Below the pieces are notes generated by a model. The model had not been told where the DNA came from and searched no databases. It was given only the letters and a program-made list of their open reading frames with translations. DNA of 64,000 bases, taken from the NCBI GenBank assembly GCA_965224255.1, contig CBDCYO010000005.1:1107168-1171167 (forward strand), in the 5' to 3' direction. This DNA comes from Dehalococcoidia bacterium (GTDB lineage Bacteria; Chloroflexota; Dehalococcoidia; UBA6926). Of this stretch, positions 43,490 to 53,813 are shown one piece after another. Each line of letters opens with the position of its first letter. The first letter of the stretch is position 1. The position numbers and the translations under genes are program-made.

Positions 43490-43777
43490 GTGGTCGGCAT
43501 GGCAACGATTCGGGCGAGATACGAGAAGGGCGTCCTGACGCCACTGGAGCCCCTTGACCTCGAGGAGGGCAAGGGGGTCGTGGTATCAGTGCAGGACGAG
43601 CCCAAGTCTGGCGGCGAGGGTCGCGCCAAGGAGCCCGAGGATACGGGAGAGTCCCTCCTTGAGATGTTTGACAGGCTGCGCAAGTCTGTTCCCCCGGAAG
43701 CATGGGATGGTCTCCCTACGGATCTTGTCAAGAACAAGAAACACTATCTCTACGGCCATCCCAAAGAAGAGGACTGA
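43490..43777 (+). CDS. antitoxin (AF2212/DUF104-like) of a VapBC-type pair
   Basis: MATIRARYEKGVLTPLEPLDLEEGKGVVVSV pattern typical of DUF104 antitoxins; stop overlaps ATG of PIN gene (ATGA). Confidence 0.55.
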   Translation: MVGMATIRARYEKGVLTPLEPLDLEEGKGVVVSVQDEPKSGGEGRAKEPEDTGESLLEMFDRLRKSVPPEAWDGLPTDLVKNKKHYLYGHPKEED

Positions 43778-44196
43778 TGCCAACGCTGTTCGCAGACTCC
43801 GGCTACTGGATTGCGCTCATGTATCCCGGTGATGAGTTGCATGTTCGGGCGAGAACGTTTGCTGCAAGCCTGGGTTCCACACCAATTGTGACCACACAGA
43901 TGTTGTTAGTGGAGGCGCTTAACTTCATGGCGGGCTTGGGCGAATCCCGTCGCAGATTCGCCGCTGAGATGGTTCAAGGCTTACAGGACGATTCCAACGT
44001 TGAGATTATTGAGCAGACAGATTCCCAATTTCGGACCGCGCTCGAACGGTACGCATCTCGTGAGGACCAGACGTGGAGCCTCACAGACTGCGCGAGTTTC
44101 ATCGTCATGGAAGAGCGAGGGCCGTCCGAGGCGCTGGCATACGACCGTGACTTTGAGCAGGCGGGGTTTGTCGCGCTACGACGATCTGTCACCTAA
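43777..44196 (+). CDS. PIN-domain toxin (VapC-like)
   Basis: N-terminal LFADSGYWIAL (D5 acidic residue), ...EQTD..., ...LTDCASF (PIN acidic quartet positions). Confidence 0.65.
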   Translation: MPTLFADSGYWIALMYPGDELHVRARTFAASLGSTPIVTTQMLLVEALNFMAGLGESRRRFAAEMVQGLQDDSNVEIIEQTDSQFRTALERYASREDQTWSLTDCASFIVMEERGPSEALAYDRDFEQAGFVALRRSVT

Positions 44197-44291: not shown

Positions 44292-44654
44292 TCACTCACC
44301 GTTGATGAGCGCGTCAACCTTTTCAATGAATCGTGAGACCTGGGCAAGGCTCTGGCGCACGTCTCTGCTTGCGAATCGACCTTCGTAGAAGTTGGTGTGT
44401 AGACCTCCGGCCTCGTTGAAGAGGGTGCGGAGCGTATCGTCATCCGTCTCTTCTACCAAGCGGCTTACCGCCCCATAAAGCAGACCATGACTGTTGTGAT
44501 CCAGCCCGCGCAGCACCGCGTAAGCCTTGACCAACTGGGCGGCCGCGCCCCAGCCCTTTTCGGAGGCTTGGCGGAGGTCATCGTTAGAGAGTTCAACAAA
44601 GGCCTGATCCAGGAACTTGCGGCCCTGTTCCACGTAGCCGTTGGCGTTCGTCAT
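44292..44654 (-). CDS. HEPN-like four-helix protein (PaREP1/HEPN-like), tentative
   Basis: 120-aa all-helical ORF with motifs SEKGWGAAAQLVKAYAVLRG and HTNFYEGRF; convergent with VapBC; the 60-bp tandem array begins 28 nt upstream of its start. Confidence 0.35.
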   Translation of the reverse strand: MTNANGYVEQGRKFLDQAFVELSNDDLRQASEKGWGAAAQLVKAYAVLRGLDHNSHGLLYGAVSRLVEETDDDTLRTLFNEAGGLHTNFYEGRFASRDVRQSLAQVSRFIEKVDALINGE

Positions 44655-44681
44655 GGCGACAGTATACGCCGGGGTGTTTAG

Positions 44682-45220
44682 CCGGAACGCGGCGCGCGAA
44701 CGACATGGGCACGATACGGCGAGTCGCGACGTTCAGAAAAGCCGGAACGCGGCAAGCGAACGACACGGGCACGGCACGGCGAGTCGCGACGTTCAGAAAA
44801 GCCGGAACGCGGCGCGCGAACGACATGGGCACGATACGGTGAGTCGCGACGTTCAGAAAAGCCGGAACGCGGCAAGCGAACGACATGGGCACGATACGGC
44901 GAGTCGCGACGTTCAGAAAAGCCGGAACGCGGCGCGCGAACGACATGGGCACGGTACGGCGAGTCGCGACGTTCAGAAAAGCCGGAACGCGGCAAGCGAA
45001 CGACATGGGCACGATACGGCGAGTCGCGACGTTCAGAAAAGCCGGAACGCGGCGCGCGAACGACACGGGCACGATACGGCGAGTCGCGACGTTCAGAAAA
45101 GCCGGAACGCGGCAAGCGAACGACATGGGCACGGTACGGCGAGTCGCGACGTTCAGAAAAGCCGGAACGCGGCGCGCGAACGACATGGGCACGATACGGT
45201 GAGTCGCGACGTTTAAAAAG
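44682..45220. repeat. tandem array: 9 x 60 bp (alternating two variants, so 120-bp higher-order period)
   Basis: gccggaacgcggc[gc/aa]gcgaacgaca[t/c]gggcacg[at/gc/gt]acgg[c/t]gagtcgcgacgttcagaaaa repeated head to tail; no unique spacers. Confidence 0.95.
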
Positions 45221-45242: not shown

Positions 45243-45452
45243 AGGAAGAGTTCGGTACTTCAGTCCAATGTTGTTTCGTCTTTGTGCGCCGAAGCGCGCA
45301 GCGATCTATGGTGTCCTGTCTCTCATCCGACCGGGGTTCCACCGCCCCGTGAGGGACGGTTCATGCCACGCAGTCACCGAATTTCGAGTCAGGAGAATCG
45401 CTGACCGACCTGGGTGCAATGCGCGCCACATAAAGCGACGCGATTGACTCCC

Positions 45453-46970
<1,518 letters not shown>

Positions 46971-46994
46971 GAACGGAAGACCTCTGTCTTCCTA

Positions 46995-47015
46995 CCACTA
47001 TCCAACTGTTAAGGT
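46995..47015. other. 5' half of putative pre-16S processing stem
   Basis: see 45221-45242. Confidence 0.6.
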
Positions 47016-47122
47016 GCATGCACCCTCCCCTGAGGAAGGACGCACCGCTCAGACTATGCCCCGCGCAGTACGTTGTCAACCCTGAGGACGCGCTCATTAC
47101 GCCGTCAATGGGGCGCGGGACA

Positions 47123-47309
47123 ATGGGTATCGCCCCACAATGTGAGACCCTCACGGCGCATTCAGAGAGATGGTGTCGTGTCGGTCCATTTGACAGTGGG
47201 GACAGGGCGTGTATCATTCGCGGTCAGAACGGGCGCTGGTACATCCGAGGCGCGCCCCCTCACGTAAGGTGAATGGAGGGGTGTCATGAACCGGTCAGCT
47301 ATCCGAATC
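47123..47309. repeat. 187-bp leader copy 1 (direct repeat of 48998-49178): promoter + structured 5'UTR + first 8 codons
   Basis: Near-identical to second copy (about ten mismatches on reading). Confidence 0.9.
47179..47207 (+). promoter_or_regulatory. sigma70-like promoter TTGACA-17-TATCAT inside leader copy 1
   Basis: Consensus -35 and near-consensus -10 hexamers with 17-nt spacer; followed by GC stem gggcgc...gcgccc and a hairpin cccctc...gagggg that would sequester the GGAGG RBS. Confidence 0.5.
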
Positions 47310-48041
47310 TTCATCATCGCCAGCATTCTTGCTGTTCTCGCTATCCTGCCGGGGTCGGCGTCCGCGGCTGAACTGGAGGCCACTGCCCCCACCGCGCCAC
47401 CTGTCATTGATGCTCCGACTTACATGATCACAACGCCGGCCGGCAGCATGTCGAAATTGCGAGCAGGGGCGGTCATCAGCCATGGCGTAAGGCTTTCTGA
47501 TGGGAGTTGTAGTAATGGCGAGATAGCCGTTGAAATTTCAAACCGAGGGGCACATGAAGGAGTTGTGTCCATGAGTGTAGACGCGCACTGCAACGTGCGT
47601 CTTGATGATCTCTCGTGGAGGCGTGTTCAGGTGCCAGCTGCTCCGTCTGTGGCTGCGGCTAGTCAGAACAAGAGGTCCGCGTCCACTAAGTCAGAACTCA
47701 ACGACGAAGTAGGGATGGACTTATTGGTCGCATTGGCCGAGATAGAGTATTCCGACGATGGGTTCGAGTTGGACGATGGTGAATTCGATTACGACTGTCG
47801 CGTCCATTGTCCATGGTGGCAATTGGCTGACTGTGATGACGGTAGTACCGTGCATGGCTCAGACCGGATGTGGGGATGGACTCGCGTAGACGGCAAGGCT
47901 TTTCCTGAATCGCGTTGGACTGGCACGACGCATGGCAAAGCAAAGGTCTGGGTCTGGCCTGATGAACATACGAACCACAGGTGCTACAACGGACGGACAC
48001 GTGTCGCCACGCACTGGCGGTGCCGATACGGTAGCTCCTGA
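47286..48041 (+). CDS. secreted Cys/Trp-rich protein (toxin/bacteriocin-like candidate), no family assigned
   Basis: Signal peptide MNRSAIRIFIIASILAVLAILPGSASA; C-terminal region rich in C, W, H (CRVHCPWWQLADCDDGS...WVWPDEHTNHRCYNG...WRCRYG). Confidence 0.55.
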   Translation: MNRSAIRIFIIASILAVLAILPGSASAAELEATAPTAPPVIDAPTYMITTPAGSMSKLRAGAVISHGVRLSDGSCSNGEIAVEISNRGAHEGVVSMSVDAHCNVRLDDLSWRRVQVPAAPSVAAASQNKRSASTKSELNDEVGMDLLVALAEIEYSDDGFELDDGEFDYDCRVHCPWWQLADCDDGSTVHGSDRMWGWTRVDGKAFPESRWTGTTHGKAKVWVWPDEHTNHRCYNGRTRVATHWRCRYGSS

Positions 48042-48077
48042 CTGGTCGCTCTGGCGGTACGCGGGAGGACTAAGGCG

Positions 48078-48986
48078 ATGGGCGGCTACAGACTCGGGCC
48101 CCTAGGCCTGGTGGGCTGCGTGGGCGCAGCCGTGATTGTCGCCAGCGGGGTGACGTGGCTCTTTGTGGAGGGGCTGCAGCTCTTCTGGGAGGATCTGGGA
48201 TTCTTCGCATTCCTGCTCATCGCCGTGCGGATCGTGGCGCTATGTATGATGCCCATTGGGCTTGTCATTGGCATCCGCGCGGTGGTTCGGGCTATGACAT
48301 CACGACTCCATGCCAGCGCATTGAACAATGCCATTACGTTCTATGCCATCGCTGTCGCATATGCGACGTTTGGGATGATGCTGCCGATGGTTGGCGTGGC
48401 GTACCTTGAGCCCGCCGTCTATCTTTCTATCGCCCTGCTCTTACTCATCGCGGTGCGTGTCGGGACGTTGTCGGGTCGCGACAAGAGCATGGCCGGTTCG
48501 CAAATCAACCTGTCACTACCCGATACTCGCCGCGCAGGTGGGCTGACGCTGCTGACCGCCGCCGCACTTCTTGGCGTCGCCATGATGTATGGGTGGTTCG
48601 CGCTCAGGGGCGATTTGGTGGAGTGCTTTGGCGCCGGGAATTGCTCGACTGACGTGACCTTTGGGGTGCTGGCGGCAATGACCACGGCCGGAATCTTGAC
48701 GGCGGGTGTTGTTCTGTGGAGTCTACACGCACCTGCCCGGGTGACACGGCTCGGCGTCATCGCCACGACAATGTATGCCTGTCTTGCCCTCATCGGGTTT
48801 GGGGCGCCGCTCTCGACTCTGGTGCCATATGACTTCGTCGCAGTGGCAGTCTGGCATGCCATCGCCAGCCTTGCACTCCTGGTCTGCCAGTCCAGTTTTG
48901 AAGACGATCCGTGGCCCCTTCCAACTCACCTGGTGATGGAACCGTGGAGCCCGCCAACGTTCGCGCCACGTCAAGAAACGGCCTAG
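48078..48986 (+). CDS. polytopic membrane protein (partner/immunity-like candidate)
   Basis: ~8 predicted TM segments; paralog of 49262-50111. Confidence 0.55.
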   Translation: MGGYRLGPLGLVGCVGAAVIVASGVTWLFVEGLQLFWEDLGFFAFLLIAVRIVALCMMPIGLVIGIRAVVRAMTSRLHASALNNAITFYAIAVAYATFGMMLPMVGVAYLEPAVYLSIALLLLIAVRVGTLSGRDKSMAGSQINLSLPDTRRAGGLTLLTAAALLGVAMMYGWFALRGDLVECFGAGNCSTDVTFGVLAAMTTAGILTAGVVLWSLHAPARVTRLGVIATTMYACLALIGFGAPLSTLVPYDFVAVAVWHAIASLALLVCQSSFEDDPWPLPTHLVMEPWSPPTFAPRQETA

Positions 48987-48997
48987 CTCTCCGGCCG

Positions 48998-49178
48998 GGT
49001 ATCGCCGCACAACGTGAACCCCACGGCGCATTCAGAGAAATGGTGTGGTGTCGGTCGATTTGACAGTGGGACAGGGCGTGTACCATTCGCGGTCAGAACG
49101 GGCGCTGGTACATCCGAGGCGCGCCCCCTCACGTAAGGTGAATGGAGGGGTGTCATGAACCGGTCAGCCATCCGAATC
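48998..49178. repeat. 187-bp leader copy 2 (promoter TTGACA-16-TACCAT at 49059-49086); its downstream secreted-protein ORF is reduced to 24 codons
   Basis: atgaaccggtcagccatccgaatc then divergence and stop. Confidence 0.9.
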
Positions 49179-49261
49179 AGTTTCCACCGTGGCACTCATT
49201 GGAAGTGCAGAACCGGCGGCAACTGACCGCTGTGAGATTTGCCTGGTGACGCGGTGATGCC

Positions 49262-50111
49262 GTGACTGCCGGGCGCTATGCTGCAGCGTTCGCGGCAGTC
49301 ACGGCCGCCAGCTTGCTCGTGGCGGCAGCCACAGCGGCGCTGATGTTGTCCGGCCACAAGTGGATGGATGATAACAGTGCCTTTGGGTATGGCACTGGAT
49401 GGATCCTATTCCTCCTTCTCGGCAGAGTGCTCGTGTTTCCGATCATGCTCTTCGTGGCAATACGGAACGGGTGCAGAGCCATCAAGATCATGATTGGGCG
49501 GCGTGATAGCTCTGTACGTCCCGCTGAGTATGGCGTTACCGTCTGTCATCGTTTTCTTGTTCTTTGAGGCCTTCCTCTATCCATTGCCGTTGCTTCTCTT
49601 GTTGGTGGCGACCGTTCGTGCGATCAGTAAGGAGGGGCGGTTGCCGGGACCTCCGGTCGTGGCGCCACGCGTGGCAGTCATCATTGTGGCGGCGGCCTGG
49701 ATGACTGTAATCGGGGCAGGCGTGGCCTATGCGCGGTTTGTTTTGGCGGGAGACGTGATGGACTGCTTTGTCTGGGAATGCCCGCCCGAAACCACAGTCG
49801 GCGCGCTGGGCTTTATGGTCATTGCAGCAACGGTGGCAGCTGTAACAGTCGCGTGGAGCCTGCGTTCCCCCATGGGGGTACGCAGGCCGGGCATCATTGC
49901 TGCTGTTGCGTTCGCGGGCATTGCCCTGCTTTTTCAGGTCACACCCATCGCATTTGTCATGCCGTATGACGCCTTTGTGCCGGGTCTCTTCTATGGGATC
50001 GCCGCAGTTGCCCTCCTGATTGTGGCTGTTGCTCGGAAGGACGAGGACGAGGTTCAGGTGGCGCCTTCCTTAAAAAGAAAGCCATCACTAGCAAAAGGAA
50101 GCCATCGCTAG
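49262..50111 (+). pseudogene. frameshifted paralog of the 48078-48986 membrane protein (two overlapping ORFs 49262-49567 and 49494-50111)
   Basis: N-terminal ORF matches FFAFLLIAVRIVALCMMPIGLVIGIRAVVRAM region, C-terminal ORF matches ALRGDLVECFGAGNCSTDVTFGVLAAMTTAG...; reading frame changes between them. Confidence 0.4.
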
Positions 50112-50528
50112 CCCGCCCATCGTGACCGCAACAAAACCCATGAGAAATCCCCCGACGTCCCGATAACACCAGTCCCGGATGCGCCACCCCTCGGTGATCT
50201 CGTAGGCCAGGAAGAGGATAGTGATGAGCGCCTGGGCGGTGAGTAGCTGTGCCAGATCAACGCCCGCCAGCGCGTCGAGAAAGGGCAGCGCTGCCACAAC
50301 CGCGCCAAGGAGTGCATGAATTCCCTCACGCATCAAGCTGGGCTTGCGGACTGGGTCGAGTCGCCATTGGCCACCGTCGCCCCGATACCAGCCTGGATTG
50401 TCGTCAGGCGGCCCCCCTAGCGTGTCATAGTCGGGGTGCGTCATCGCTCTCCGCCATTGCCGTGGGTCCGCTGCCATGGCAGAAAGCGCTCGTGGTGTGT
50501 CGTTCCAAGGTGAACTGCTCCTGGCCAA
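50088..50528 (-). CDS. hypothetical membrane protein
   Basis: C-terminal half hydrophobic (3 TM); adjacent to portal gene. Confidence 0.3.
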   Translation of the reverse strand: MARSSSPWNDTPRALSAMAADPRQWRRAMTHPDYDTLGGPPDDNPGWYRGDGGQWRLDPVRKPSLMREGIHALLGAVVAALPFLDALAGVDLAQLLTAQALITILFLAYEITEGWRIRDWCYRDVGGFLMGFVAVTMGGLAMASFC

Positions 50529-50532
50529 TACA

Positions 50533-51903
50533 TCAAGATGACATCAGGGGAACGCCCGATTCCGGTGTCGTTCCCTCCGCATCTATCCGCGCCATTTCCC
50601 CGTCCGGGTCATCCGTTCCCAGGCGTGACATTGCCGTCCTCCTTGCGCGCAGTCCGCCCCGCACCAACTCGATCTCTTGTCGGACAACCTGCGCCTGATC
50701 CTGTGGAAGAACAGCGCCCCACTCGATGGCCGTTCGATAGGGAGCGAGGCGCTCCCCTGTCCGCTGTTCATGAATTCTCAGGGTGATCTCGTTCCGTTTG
50801 CGGTACGCCGCTGCCCGGATGAGGCGCTTCCGCCGCAGCTTGTGTAGCAGCGGGTGCAGCTCCATTTCAAGCGCGACGCCGGATAACCCCTGTCGATTGT
50901 CCCCAAAGGCGATGCGGGGCGTCTCCGAGAGATCATGGAGCGTGCGATAAATAGCGTTGACGTAATCCATGTGAAGCTGGACGCCGCCTCCCTGCAAGAG
51001 GTCCAGCAGATATGCCCGCGCTCGGTCGGGCAGTTCCCAGACGGCGCCGGGCTGGATAGCGATGTCCTGTGACTGGTCAACGTTCTCCAAGACGGCGATG
51101 GGATTACCGGAGAGCTCAAGGATGGTGGAAAGCTGTGAAAGGGCGCGGTTGAGTTCACGGATCGGTTCCACAATGGCGGGGATATCGGACACGCCCCAGA
51201 ACTGCTTCGGCGCGCGGATGTTGGGGTAGACGACAAAGGGGATGAGTCCGTACGGGTTGGCCTCATCGCGCGCCAGTGAGTCCCCTACCCAGAGTTGAAA
51301 CCGCTTCTCGCTCCACACCTCCGTCATAGTGACACCGCGCTGAGAGTCTCCCCGCGCAGGCGATCGAATGCCGTGCAACTCACGTGCCTCATCGGCATCC
51401 AACGTGTACCGAGAGGCCACGCGGCGTATGCGATTGACGTCATCGCCCACCCACCAACAGTGGAGCCCCTGCACATCCGGCGCGGTGATACGGACACCGC
51501 CTCTCTCCTCGTCCCATGTGATCTTGTACGCGCCATCGCCCAGGACGGCTGTATCGATCTCCGTATCGAAATCGAGCTGATCGAGTGAATTTGTCTCGGC
51601 AATGTCCGCGAGCAGACGCTCCGTGTGCCGCGCCCGCTCCTGTGCCTCCGGTGACGCATCCTCCGGCGGAACCGTGGAGCGAATATCCGCCACCAGATAG
51701 GACGTCACCTTTTCCACTGCGGCGCGGGCGTAGTTAAAGGTAAGACGACGCTCCCGACCCCGTGCGCGGCCGGGCCAGTGGTCGCCGTTGTAGAAGGCCA
51801 GATTGCGTCGATACCGATCGCGCCTTTCCGAGTCCCGCCGATCCAATGAAGACGGAACGAACGCTCCCCTGCTCTGCGCGTGTCCATTCTGAGATATCGC
51901 CAT
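50533..51903 (-). CDS. phage portal protein (family not assigned)
   Basis: 456 aa, position immediately downstream of large terminase, NYARAAVEKVTSYL-type portal wing region, acidic C-terminal tail. Confidence 0.6.
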   Translation of the reverse strand: MAISQNGHAQSRGAFVPSSLDRRDSERRDRYRRNLAFYNGDHWPGRARGRERRLTFNYARAAVEKVTSYLVADIRSTVPPEDASPEAQERARHTERLLADIAETNSLDQLDFDTEIDTAVLGDGAYKITWDEERGGVRITAPDVQGLHCWWVGDDVNRIRRVASRYTLDADEARELHGIRSPARGDSQRGVTMTEVWSEKRFQLWVGDSLARDEANPYGLIPFVVYPNIRAPKQFWGVSDIPAIVEPIRELNRALSQLSTILELSGNPIAVLENVDQSQDIAIQPGAVWELPDRARAYLLDLLQGGGVQLHMDYVNAIYRTLHDLSETPRIAFGDNRQGLSGVALEMELHPLLHKLRRKRLIRAAAYRKRNEITLRIHEQRTGERLAPYRTAIEWGAVLPQDQAQVVRQEIELVRGGLRARRTAMSRLGTDDPDGEMARIDAEGTTPESGVPLMSS

Positions 51904-51908
51904 CGTGC

Positions 51909-52310
51909 CTACCTCTCCCGCTTCCTCGTATCTGGTACCATTTCCGCCTCTACTCGGGCAGACTGTAGCGCACGGTAAATCGTCCGTGTGCCAACGTTGA
52001 AACGCTCTGAAATGGTCGCAATCGGCAGCCCTTCCTCGACGCGCGCCCTGACGATGGCCCCGTCACGACTCAGGAGATTCTGGCGCCGTGAGACAAGCGG
52101 CTCATCGTAGCGGCAACGGGGGAAAGGGCACTCCAGGGATCGCTGACACCCATCGCCGCAGCCGCGGTCTATGTAGAGCGTGTCCTCAGGCAGGTCGTCC
52201 GCGAGGCCTGAACTCCGTCGTCGCATGAGCGGGATTTCGAGCCGATCAACACTATTCGGCTTTCGTGGTGCGGCGGGTTGGGCGATGTGTTGTCCTGAAT
52301 CCACAGTCAT
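51909..52310 (-). CDS. small HTH protein (terminase small subunit-like or sigma-70 region-4-like)
   Basis: C-terminal helix-turn-helix IATISERFNVGTRTIYRAL; Cys cluster CGDGC...CPFPRC. Confidence 0.4.
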   Translation of the reverse strand: MTVDSGQHIAQPAAPRKPNSVDRLEIPLMRRRSSGLADDLPEDTLYIDRGCGDGCQRSLECPFPRCRYDEPLVSRRQNLLSRDGAIVRARVEEGLPIATISERFNVGTRTIYRALQSARVEAEMVPDTRKRER

Positions 52311-52349
52311 GCCGCGACCTCCTGAATGAACTTGACATATAGGTACTGG

Positions 52350-53813
52350 TCATATTGAGGTACGTTCCTCCATACTCGGCCGGCCGACGGCCCTTCGTGG
52401 GCCACTCTCGTCCGCGCTCGCGTGTGCAAGTAGTGCGAGAGAGACCACAAAATCGTCATGACCCTCACGCTCAGGCACGTAGAAATTCATTGTCCGGTTG
52501 GCGTTGTGCTGCGCCTGTGCATGGCGCAGTTGATGGCGAACAGCCGTCGACTCAGAGGAATGATCATGCGCATAGAGGCGCAGGCGACCCGCGTTGACAA
52601 GCGCCAGGAGTTCAAAGCCGAGTCGAGATTTCACCTGCTGCGTGAAGACGACGGGCTGCACGGCCTGTCCCATGCGTCTGCGGAGCGCGGCCGCTGTCGG
52701 CTCTCCGATGCCGGTGGCGTCGACGGCTACGCGGCGCACACGCCAAACATTCTTGAGCAGATCAGTCAACTGTTCAGTCAGGGCTCCATGCGGCGCGCCC
52801 CGCCACTGGTAGTGCTGGACAACGCGGAGATGTGGCTCACTGCCATGCTCTCCGGCAACCACCTCGCCGATTGTGAGGACGGTCTCGTCCCGAGCCACGG
52901 TGCCAGCCGCGCCCCACTCCATCTCGGAAATCGTCACGGGTGCACCAGCAAGGTCAAGCCCAGCGACATAGACCCCGCCGGGGCGCGGCGTGTCCTGCCG
53001 CGCATGCACGCCCTGCAGTTGAGTGAGTTGCCCCGCGTTGAAGAGTCGTGTCGTCTCATCAAGCGGAAGCAGAGCATACTGCGTTCGAAATAGCGGGTGT
53101 TCCTCGCCCAACCGCTGACGCTCAGACTCGACGAATGCTCCGTACGATGGGTTGTACTGCGCAACGTCCTGCCACGTATAACGGAAGTGGCGCTTCTCAG
53201 CGCGTGGATCGTCCACGCGCCCGGTGGCATGAGGCATGGCAGAAACCTTGGTCTGTTCCAGCAAGGAGTCGCTCCGCCACGCAGTCCCATAGAGAACAGT
53301 CGTCGCGTTGTGCGCGGCAGCCATTGGCCGAAAATCCCGATTGAATTTCTCCGGGGAGACATCCTGCGCCTCGTCTACTTCCAGGAGAATGCTCGCCGTC
53401 TGTCCGACGACATTGGCCGAGGGGTGTGCGCTGAGATACGTGGCGCGTGATCGACCGACGTGGAGGATGTGCCCTTTTTCTATGTGAGAGATGCGACTGA
53501 GGCCATTCTCATCGAGTCGGCGCACAATGCGCTCGATAGAGATCAGGGACTGGGGTTGGAACGTGGGCGCGGCCTTGACGATCGAACCGCCGCGGGCGAC
53601 ATTGCGGAGCAACAGGACCATTTGCAGGTACGCGGAGAGCTCGTTCTTGCCCGCCTGCCGCGCCATCTCCACGGTGAACGTCAAGCCGCGCCGATTGAAG
53701 ACCGAATCCAGCACAGCCTGTGCCACCTCCGCCTGATACGGACGCAGACGGATGACGGATACCGGCGCGCTACGGCGCGCCGGTATCGTTCGCGCCTCCA
53801 CGGCGGGCGTCAT
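52350..53813 (-). CDS. phage terminase large subunit
   Basis: Walker A-like ARQAGKN, Walker B/coupling LLEVDEAQDV, C-terminal RNaseH-like nuclease acidic residues (GLDLAG..., VAVDATGIGE). Confidence 0.7.
   Translation of the reverse strand: MTPAVEARTIPARRSAPVSVIRLRPYQAEVAQAVLDSVFNRRGLTFTVEMARQAGKNELSAYLQMVLLLRNVARGGSIVKAAPTFQPQSLISIERIVRRLDENGLSRISHIEKGHILHVGRSRATYLSAHPSANVVGQTASILLEVDEAQDVSPEKFNRDFRPMAAAHNATTVLYGTAWRSDSLLEQTKVSAMPHATGRVDDPRAEKRHFRYTWQDVAQYNPSYGAFVESERQRLGEEHPLFRTQYALLPLDETTRLFNAGQLTQLQGVHARQDTPRPGGVYVAGLDLAGAPVTISEMEWGAAGTVARDETVLTIGEVVAGEHGSEPHLRVVQHYQWRGAPHGALTEQLTDLLKNVWRVRRVAVDATGIGEPTAAALRRRMGQAVQPVVFTQQVKSRLGFELLALVNAGRLRLYAHDHSSESTAVRHQLRHAQAQHNANRTMNFYVPEREGHDDFVVSLALLAHASADESGPRRAVGRPSMEERTSI

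Follow-up and report, generated by a model that had tools for sequence, protein, structure and literature searches.

The window analysed here, a stretch of 64,000 nucleotides of contig CBDCYO010000005.1 of a Dehalococcoidia bacterium, carries at positions 47123–50575 a variable island in which a two-gene operon specific to the clade is arrayed in tandem. Each unit of the array, or cassette, comprises a leader with promoter, 5′ untranslated region (5′ UTR) and translation start, gene A encoding an exported protein rich in Cys and Trp, and gene B encoding a polytopic membrane protein. Comparison with orthologs in related genomes shows that the type-1 cassette (A1–B1) is intact in this genome and that the type-2 cassette following it (A2–B2) is dead. 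The two cassettes differ widely in their membrane genes and are headed by nearly identical leaders, which the alignments attribute to intragenomic gene conversion.

The variable island and its cassettes

The limits of the island are set by comparison with a relative, OZ241912 (L002/L007; labels such as L001 denote the loci of relatives used in the comparisons). OZ241912 is one of the three chromosomes, all from Dehalococcoidia bacterium metagenome-assembled genomes, matched by the leader pattern in a scan of one genome per species; neither the JGI metagenome contigs nor 2.9 million viral contigs contain a match to the pattern. A block including the 16S rRNA gene is 94% identical in the two genomes (window 45278–47122, L002 3084–4932), and the match breaks off no more than three bases from the left edge of leader copy 1. 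Because the conserved block ends there, the 16S promoter must sit in 46967–47122, and the leader is not part of it. Similarity to L002 resumes at 50575, in a prophage remnant syntenic with L002 7808–11620 at 73.5% nucleotide identity and matching the Pfam families SPP1_portal (3e-12) and Terminase_6C (5e-6). The 3.45 kb between these conserved flanks differ in gene content: L002 has an orphan B-like gene, a leader, A241 and then a gene for a 123-aa protein with four transmembrane (TM) segments. Further arrays were found in other relatives, with three cassettes in L001 (A247–B304, A255–B285 and A199–B302), two in L004, and one each seen in L005, L006 and L008.

Table 1. Features of the cassette array and its flanks in the window.
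Feature	Position	Strand	Description and basis
Leader copy 1	47125..47309	+	Promoter, ~60-nt 5′ UTR, ribosome-binding site (RBS), ATG, first 8 codons; repeats, alignment, promoter scan
Gene A1	47286..48041	+	251 aa, Sec-type signal peptide, all-beta (predicted), six family-conserved Cys; open reading frame (ORF), homologs, AlphaFold2
Gene B1	48078..48986	+	302 aa, type-1 membrane protein, 8 TM; ORF, hydropathy, homologs
Leader copy 2	48997..49178	+	Promoter, UTR; RBS and first 8 codons as in copy 1
A2 stub	49155..49226	+	23 codons and stop; type-2 A with ~708-bp in-frame internal deletion
B2 pseudogene	49262..50111	+	Type-2 membrane paralog; frames 49262–49567 and 49494–50111
16S rRNA gene	45456..46966	-	Left conserved flank; Rfam SSU_rRNA_bacteria, 1536 bits
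Prophage remnant	50533..53813	-	Right conserved flank; portal 50533–51903, helix-turn-helix small-terminase-like 51909–52310, large terminase 52350–53813

Both genes of the second cassette are damaged. What is left of a type-2 A gene in the A2 stub is its first eight codons and its final ~11: window 49105–49178 aligns with L001 8139–8211 (leader and eight codons), window 49191–49230 with L001 8920–8959 at 93% identity, and the 12 nt lying between them (49179–49190) stand, in frame, in place of the gene body. The C-terminus of the stub, THWKCRTGGN, matches that of the type-2 A protein P0005 (...THWRCRTGGN). In B2, the two reading frames result from a 47-bp deletion between 49498 and 49499; as the missing segment is present in three intact orthologs (L001, L004 and L005), the frameshift stems from a genuine deletion and not from a sequencing error in a homopolymer. 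Measured against the intact, single-frame ortholog of 285 aa (L001, L004), the B2 fragments reach 58% and 77% identity, and the aberrant 3′ end of B2 is built of a 20-bp unit present twice in tandem (50073–50112). A 146-aa ORF on the opposite strand (50088–50528) overlaps the end of B2 and abuts the portal gene; its product has a hydrophobic C-terminus and matches no family.

A sequence-only reading of the window had described a reiterated cassette, lying between the 16S gene and a phage remnant, in which a promoter and leader precede an exported Cys/Trp-rich protein and a polytopic membrane protein. In that reading the first copy encodes a 251-aa signal-peptide protein and, next to it, a 302-aa protein with about eight TM segments, and the second copy is decayed, its secreted gene cut short and its membrane paralog frameshifted. 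All of this agrees with the ORFs, hydropathy and Cys and Trp counts, with the Rfam and Pfam assignments and L002 synteny, and with the two deletions described above.

Conversion, conservation and regulation of the leader

The ~185-bp leader is present in two direct copies with ~95% identity, as established by repeat search and pairwise alignment. The repeat consists of three direct blocks, all in register and spaced 1869–1872 nt apart: the first shows 85% identity (47125–47150 versus 48997–49022), and the second and third reach 91% (47146–47200 versus 49016–49070) and 98% (47199–47309 versus 49068–49178). A 46-nt core occurs exactly twice in the window and not once in 100 shuffles, and thus the repeat is real and not due to chance. 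In copy 1 the promoter scan found a sigma-70-like promoter, TTGACA (47190–47195) and TATCAT (47212–47217), matching the consensus in 11 of 12 positions and forming the sole strong plus-strand site of the region. The spacer, given as 17 nt in the sequence-only reading, counts 16 nt. In copy 2, TTGACA (49060–49065) and TACCAT (49081–49086) are separated by 15 nt, one G having been lost. Both copies have, as that reading stated, the GC segments GGGCGC/GCGCCC (47231–47236/47252–47257 in copy 1), CCCCTC (47256–47261) and GAGGGG (47277–47282), and there is no difference between the two in the GGAGG RBS (47275–47279), the ATG at 47286 or the codons MNRSAIRI.

B1 and B2 share only 29–34% identity. For B2 the figure is 77% against the 285-aa type-2 B proteins of other genomes, in which type-1 cassettes also occur; the two window cassettes are therefore ancient paralogs. 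A recent tandem duplication of the whole cassette, with later decay of copy 2, would account for ~95% identity of direct leader copies 1.87 kb apart. It is, however, refuted by the ortholog comparison, and we consider it next to incredible: beside the low identity of the B proteins, the 3′ remnant of A2 is 93% identical to type-2 orthologs in other genomes, and the identity of the leaders falls off abruptly at either end of the 185-bp tract. The description of the locus as a duplicated cassette is thus not supported: the cassette is reiterated, but its two units are ancient paralogs, and what they have come to share recently, by gene conversion, is the leader alone.

The alignments show the near-identity of the window leaders to be attributable to intragenomic gene conversion and not to recent duplication. 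Leaders 95% identical head B-gene lineages of ~30% identity in the window, and in L004 leaders that are 99% identical (L004_a and L004_b) are attached to A proteins with 41% identity; the three L001 leaders have not been homogenised (59–79%). Both window leaders share with the type-1a leader L001_a states, such as GGT(A/T)CATCCGAGGCGCG, that are missing from type-2 leaders elsewhere, which identifies copy 1 as the donor and copy 2 as the recipient. Towards the ATG the identity climbs from 85% to 98%, and the tract stops precisely at the start of the A2 deletion. This suggests repeated conversion, possibly coupled to the event that deleted the body of A2.

A leader core of ~145 nt (window 47176–47320) can be aligned in all 11 of 11 cassettes, and a hidden Markov model of the leader finds only those 11 sites, all upstream of A genes, in the window and the 17 loci. 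Its conserved elements are TTGACA, 16 nt and TAnnnT, with GCGTG before them, followed by a AGAACGGG box close to the inferred start site, then a run rich in C, AGGTG, GGAGG and ATGA-CGG-CAG-ATC-AATC. Between genomes, pairwise identity is 52–90% in the segment from -110 to -1 and 79–100% in the first 24 coding nucleotides of A, as against 45–68% in the remaining A coding sequence of non-orthologous pairs (81% in the one orthologous pair) and 35–63% at third positions of identical residues (75% for the orthologous pair). The first 24 nucleotides being far more alike than the rest of the gene or its third positions, the start region is under constraint at the nucleotide level, and we infer that the leader is held by purifying selection as a shared expression module. 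Such a module would combine the promoter, probable sites for a trans-acting regulator and the translation-initiation region, and it may at the same time supply the homology for recombination by which arrays expand, contract and are reshuffled.

Candidate operators are an inverted repeat, TGTC(A/G)-N7/8-TGACA, which overlaps the -35 element (47180–47218 and homologous leaders), and direct repeats of GCGTGT flanking the promoter at about -45 and -14. A LexA box was considered and rejected, since no GTTC half-site lies at the required distance from the conserved AGAAC that follows the start site. Equally, an upstream ORF in the window UTR (ATGGAGGGG...) is not kept in the alignment of the other leaders.

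Known elements that sequester the Shine-Dalgarno (SD) sequence in a 5′ UTR are the ROSE and fourU RNA thermometers and the translational riboswitches. The leader resembles them in its length of ~60 nt and in a C-rich stretch upstream that is able to pair with GGAGG; it differs in having no family match, no covariation and no excess stability, and in that the occlusion is not conserved across leaders. The sequence-only reading had proposed an RBS-sequestering hairpin as a conserved riboregulator, and in its broader form the idea is that the leader acts in cis as an RNA switch, either a thermometer or an element responding to a ligand or protein, with a CCCCUC...GAGGGG helix that masks the SD until a signal is received. 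This would fit the SD pairing probability of 0.80 in the window copy, the SD-containing helix drawn by RNAalifold, pairable in ~96% of cells, and the nucleotide-level constraint on the 5′ UTR and first codons. Nevertheless, none of the 22 pairs of the RNAalifold consensus of ten leaders is compensatory (0/22) and its covariation term is unfavourable (+0.74), a pair-counting covariation score is lower for the ten leaders (0.077) than the shuffled mean (0.094), and the leader folds with no more than ordinary energy (z = -0.93 in the UTR, -1.16 over the whole repeat and +1.36 on the opposite strand). SD pairing ranges from 0.15 to 0.89 over the ten leaders and in none of them lies significantly above controls with dinucleotide-shuffled upstream sequence, 6% to 100% of which, depending on the leader, equal or exceed the native value; in L006 (0.15) and L001_a (0.32) the SD is mostly free. 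An apparent compensation in the GC clamp, GGGCGC/GCGCCC versus GGGGGC/GCCCCC, is a register shift within a G/C run and not column-wise covariation.

Rfam has no match to the leader, either in the whole window at gathering score or in 46960–47340 at E<=10, where only chance matches to C/D-box models on the minus strand appear. These are archaeal C/D-box small RNA models at 47275–47321 (-), opposite the A start codon, with a best score of 23.6 bits against a gathering score of 50; they were judged to arise by chance from GATGATGA...CTGA motifs. The leader is thus not demonstrably an RNA switch, and we hold that it is one to be improbable. Since it is conserved without a conserved fold, recognition by proteins and the ribosome, through the promoter, the operator-like repeats and the initiation region, explains it better.

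Proteins A and B and the flanking genes

The A1 protein has a single N-terminal hydrophobic segment followed by ASA|AE, and a mature A protein counts ~225 aa. A1 contains seven Cys in total and eight Trp within its last 124 residues. An alignment of 25 sequences shows the common layout of the family: a signal peptide, an N-terminal module that contains C75 and C102, and a C-terminal module with the pairs C171/C183 and C233/C246 and the motifs SELND, DDGS, GW..C and HW.C.G. The six conserved Cys are the number required for three disulfides. The signal is of the cleavable ASA|A type, and a lipobox, an anchor or a wall-binding motif is not present. With this alignment AlphaFold2 gave a confident all-beta model (mean pLDDT 87.5, pTM 0.78), in which eight strands of 8–13 residues are predicted within residues 128–250; an earlier run on a 6-sequence alignment was unusable (pLDDT 36). 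No significant match to A was found in Pfam, NCBIfam, PADLOC, PHROGs or the PDB sequence profile, and none of the Foldseek hits of the model was significant (best E 9e-3 in PDB and 1.5e-3 in BFVD, TM <= 0.22); the fold as modelled may be new. No housekeeping homolog of A was thus found in family libraries, by PDB profile or by fold searches. Pfam DUF6286 was dismissed, as it scored 17.7 bits against a cut-off of 35 in only 1 of the 25 members. The N-terminal module gave an hmmsearch alignment of profile positions 32–84 with 22 repeats of a He_PIG (bacterial Ig-like) protein, for which the hhalign probability is 1%.

Close homologs of A form 6 clusters among 5.8 billion proteins, all on contigs of 0.04–2.0 Mb. 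A profile search of 1.84 billion cluster representatives yielded 54 proteins at E<=1e-3, 14 of them at E<=1e-10, and the profile has no match in the JGI metagenome set or in 2.9 million viral contigs. The only remote homolog with a named source is a hypothetical protein of a "Chloroflexi bacterium"; the A family is uncharacterised and at least partly of Chloroflexota. One remote homolog has DsbA and MauE/DoxX genes directly upstream (L009 227–1455) and another adjoins a gene for a DCC1-like thiol oxidoreductase (L016 1641–2174); thiol-disulfide genes beside remote homologs fit oxidative folding of the six-Cys protein. It is also worth mentioning that in three relatives the A gene is frameshifted and B intact (L001 10085–10812, i.e., L001_c; L006 6749–6025; L008 6831–7567); these are either real pseudogenes or long-read assembly errors.

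B1 starts 36 nt past the A1 stop codon, has its own upstream SD, GGGAGGA, and shows eight hydropathy peaks. By the positive-inside rule both termini of B are predicted to lie inside, which would place the TM5–TM6 loop with C183 and C189 outside. Across B types only R51, E111, the C183/C189 pair, the TM residue C235 and some structural residues are conserved, and the alignment of all types contains no CxxC and no conserved catalytic constellation. Five clusters of close homologs exist among the 5.8 billion proteins, likewise on contigs of 0.04–2.0 Mb, and B1 belongs to no Pfam, NCBIfam, PADLOC or PHROG family. A DsbB/VKOR-type oxidoreductase was rejected, as only the C-x5-C loop pair and C235 are invariant and neither CxxC nor a Pfam match is found; TgpA_N for B2 (E 0.004, below the cut-off) and YidC for type-2 B (18 bits versus a cut-off of 425) were likewise discarded.

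In 17 of 18 contexts the gene next downstream of A encodes a polytopic membrane protein: in 10/10 of the close clade, where the gap is 33–75 nt in close relatives, and in 7/8 contexts of remote homologs, where the neighbour is a protein of 78–149 aa with 2–4 TM segments. The eighth remote context is the one in which DsbA and MauE/DoxX genes precede A. The small partners have no detectable similarity to B. An exported A with an adjoining membrane protein is thus a trait of the family, and the partnership anticipated by the sequence-only reading holds, but the family of the partner is not fixed.

As regards the flanks of the island, the prophage remnant lacks head and tail genes after the portal gene, which points to an old, vertically kept fragment. 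The 16S gene stands alone, with no 23S, 5S or spacer tRNA in the 64-kb window, indicating that the rRNA genes are unlinked in this genome. About 235 bp past its 3′ end a 60-bp unit is repeated nine times in tandem (44680–45220, 93% matches), too uniformly for a CRISPR array. This repeat is adjoined by a PIN-domain gene (43702–44196, +) and a PaREP1/HEPN-like gene (44292–44654, -), and a PaREP1 gene is also found at the syntenic place in L002.

Function of the operon and its relation to known systems

The sequence-only reading had compared the layout to modules of a bacteriocin or polymorphic toxin with its immunity protein, and as an analogy this is plausible. The reading we prefer, by analogy and with confidence falling just short of an even chance, is antagonism. 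A would be secreted, folded oxidatively outside the cell and would act there as an extracellular effector; its membrane partner would act cell-autonomously, most probably protecting the producer or blocking the receptor as the immunity proteins of Sec-dependent bacteriocins do. Consistent with an immunity-like partner, tandem arrays of divergent pairs lie in variable islands that also hold prophage, GmrSD, PIN, PaREP1/HEPN, HigB, Fic and resolvase genes. Of 12 cassettes, 4 have a broken A (window A2, L001_c, L006 and L008) and 1 a broken B, a difference short of statistical significance; L002 has an orphan B-like gene; and in size and topology the small 2–4 TM proteins beside remote homologs are similar to bacteriocin immunity proteins. 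None of these three points is statistically firm. The absence from B of a catalytic motif conserved across types also fits such a partner.

Several findings weigh against antagonism. Searches by sequence and by fold brought up no family of toxins, bacteriocins, immunity proteins or defence proteins; A is conserved most strongly across its family in the C-terminal domain, which is no exchangeable polymorphic tip; the membrane proteins next to remote A homologs show no detectable homology to B; and the frameshifts in relatives could be long-read assembly errors. Furthermore, the A and B trees are incongruent, with L005 A grouping with L001_a A (62%) and L005 B being of type 2 (57–64% versus 39%), which argues against strict cognate co-evolution. 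Some of these findings sit more easily with a non-antagonistic envelope module, an explanation we regard as rather doubtful, in which A is a surface or envelope protein (binding, adhesion or structural) docked, anchored or matured by the membrane protein, and the arrays serve antigenic or functional diversification as in the tandem lipoprotein or variable-surface clusters of Firmicutes and Mollicutes that share conserved 5′ regions. It would explain why the core of A is conserved rather than polymorphic and why reassortment of A and B is tolerated, and it agrees with the thiol-disulfide oxidoreductase genes beside remote homologs, with the invariant outward Cys pair and TM Cys of B, and with the conserved 5′ unit documented as a recombination substrate in the S. 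aureus lpl tandem paralog cluster (PMC2568036). On the other hand, the cleavable signal of A and its lack of a lipobox, anchor or wall-binding motif do not suit a surface protein; a DsbB/VKOR-like role of the partner is made unlikely by the small remote partners, mostly devoid of Cys, and by a B without CxxC; and a trend of A loss with B kept is not expected for an anchor without cargo. That the cassette is cargo of the adjoining prophage, a moron or a superinfection-exclusion pair, is suggested by its abutting the portal/terminase remnant in the window and in syntenic L002, yet it is very improbable: the L001 and L004 arrays lie between a major facilitator superfamily (MFS) transporter gene and pdxA without phage genes, A and the leader have no relatives in the 2.9 million viral contigs, and no significant PHROG or BFVD structural match was obtained.

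Taken at its fullest, the antagonism reading would make A and B a previously unrecognised family of Sec-exported triple-disulfide toxins with polytopic-membrane immunity, the first bacteriocin-like antagonism system described in Dehalococcoidia, whose shared leader block would be both a co-regulation module and a homology cassette for the duplication, deletion and reassortment of units. In this complete form we deem it unlikely. By tests of membership the locus falls into no named family; it belongs with the theme of an exported effector plus a membrane partner.

In architecture the closest analogy to the cassette is offered by operons of Sec-dependent bacteriocins, and orphan effector/immunity arrays also come near it. 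Sec-dependent protein bacteriocins that have an adjoining membrane immunity gene include the two-domain class III enterolysin A and lactococcin 972 (Lcn972), the latter described as having no cysteines able to form bridges (PMC8538875). Shared with them are the N-terminal Sec signal, a secreted folded protein, a downstream gene for a small or polytopic membrane protein in the same operon, location in the accessory genome, patchy distribution and pseudogenised copies. The differences are that A and B show no similarity in sequence or fold to any bacteriocin or immunity family, that A has six conserved Cys in ~225 mature residues, unlike Lcn972, and that the 8-TM B is far larger than typical immunity proteins.

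Polymorphic toxin and orphan-immunity arrays comprise the cdiA-CT/cdiI genes of contact-dependent inhibition (CDI), Rhs and MafB. They have in common with the cassettes tandem divergent effector–partner pairs, partners kept without an intact effector, and, where each cassette begins at its 5′ edge, a conserved segment able to mediate recombination. Here, however, each A is complete, with its own promoter and signal peptide, and is not a tip split off a large delivery protein; it is the C-terminal domain of A that is conserved, with variation spread along the protein; and the partner is an integral membrane protein rather than a small cytosolic binder. No secretion-system genes, such as those of types V, VI or VII (T5SS, T6SS, T7SS), were found in any examined locus, where only the Sec-type signal peptide is available.

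Tandem paralog clusters of a comparable kind are the vsp/vlp families of Mycoplasma. In the lpl cluster of Staphylococcus aureus a conserved recombination and expression unit spans the intergenic region as well as the 5′ end of the ORF (Tsuru & Kobayashi 2008, PMC2568036). As in the cassettes, a non-coding region and signal-peptide start are common to otherwise divergent exported tandem paralogs, with signs of recombination and concerted evolution among the repeats and of shuffling of the adjacent variable parts. Unlike the products of these clusters, A is not a lipoprotein; each unit is a two-gene operon with a membrane protein, and the array in the window contains no phase-variation switch such as a poly-A tract, an invertase or a site-specific recombinase.

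Dehalococcoidia grow slowly, are largely uncultured and belong to subsurface and wastewater communities, and to our knowledge almost nothing is known of their interactions with neighbours. If A and its partner are effector and immunity proteins, they would represent a new family of protein toxins, whose fold finds no significant match in PDB by Foldseek, and would give a handle on competition within Dehalococcoidia; if they are ordinary envelope components, the operon would be a routine lineage-specific gene family. Whatever their function, the cassettes are a clean natural example of a promoter, 5′ UTR and first eight codons evolving in concert while the genes they drive are ~30–40% identical, and of a regulatory module mediating the turnover of a cassette array.

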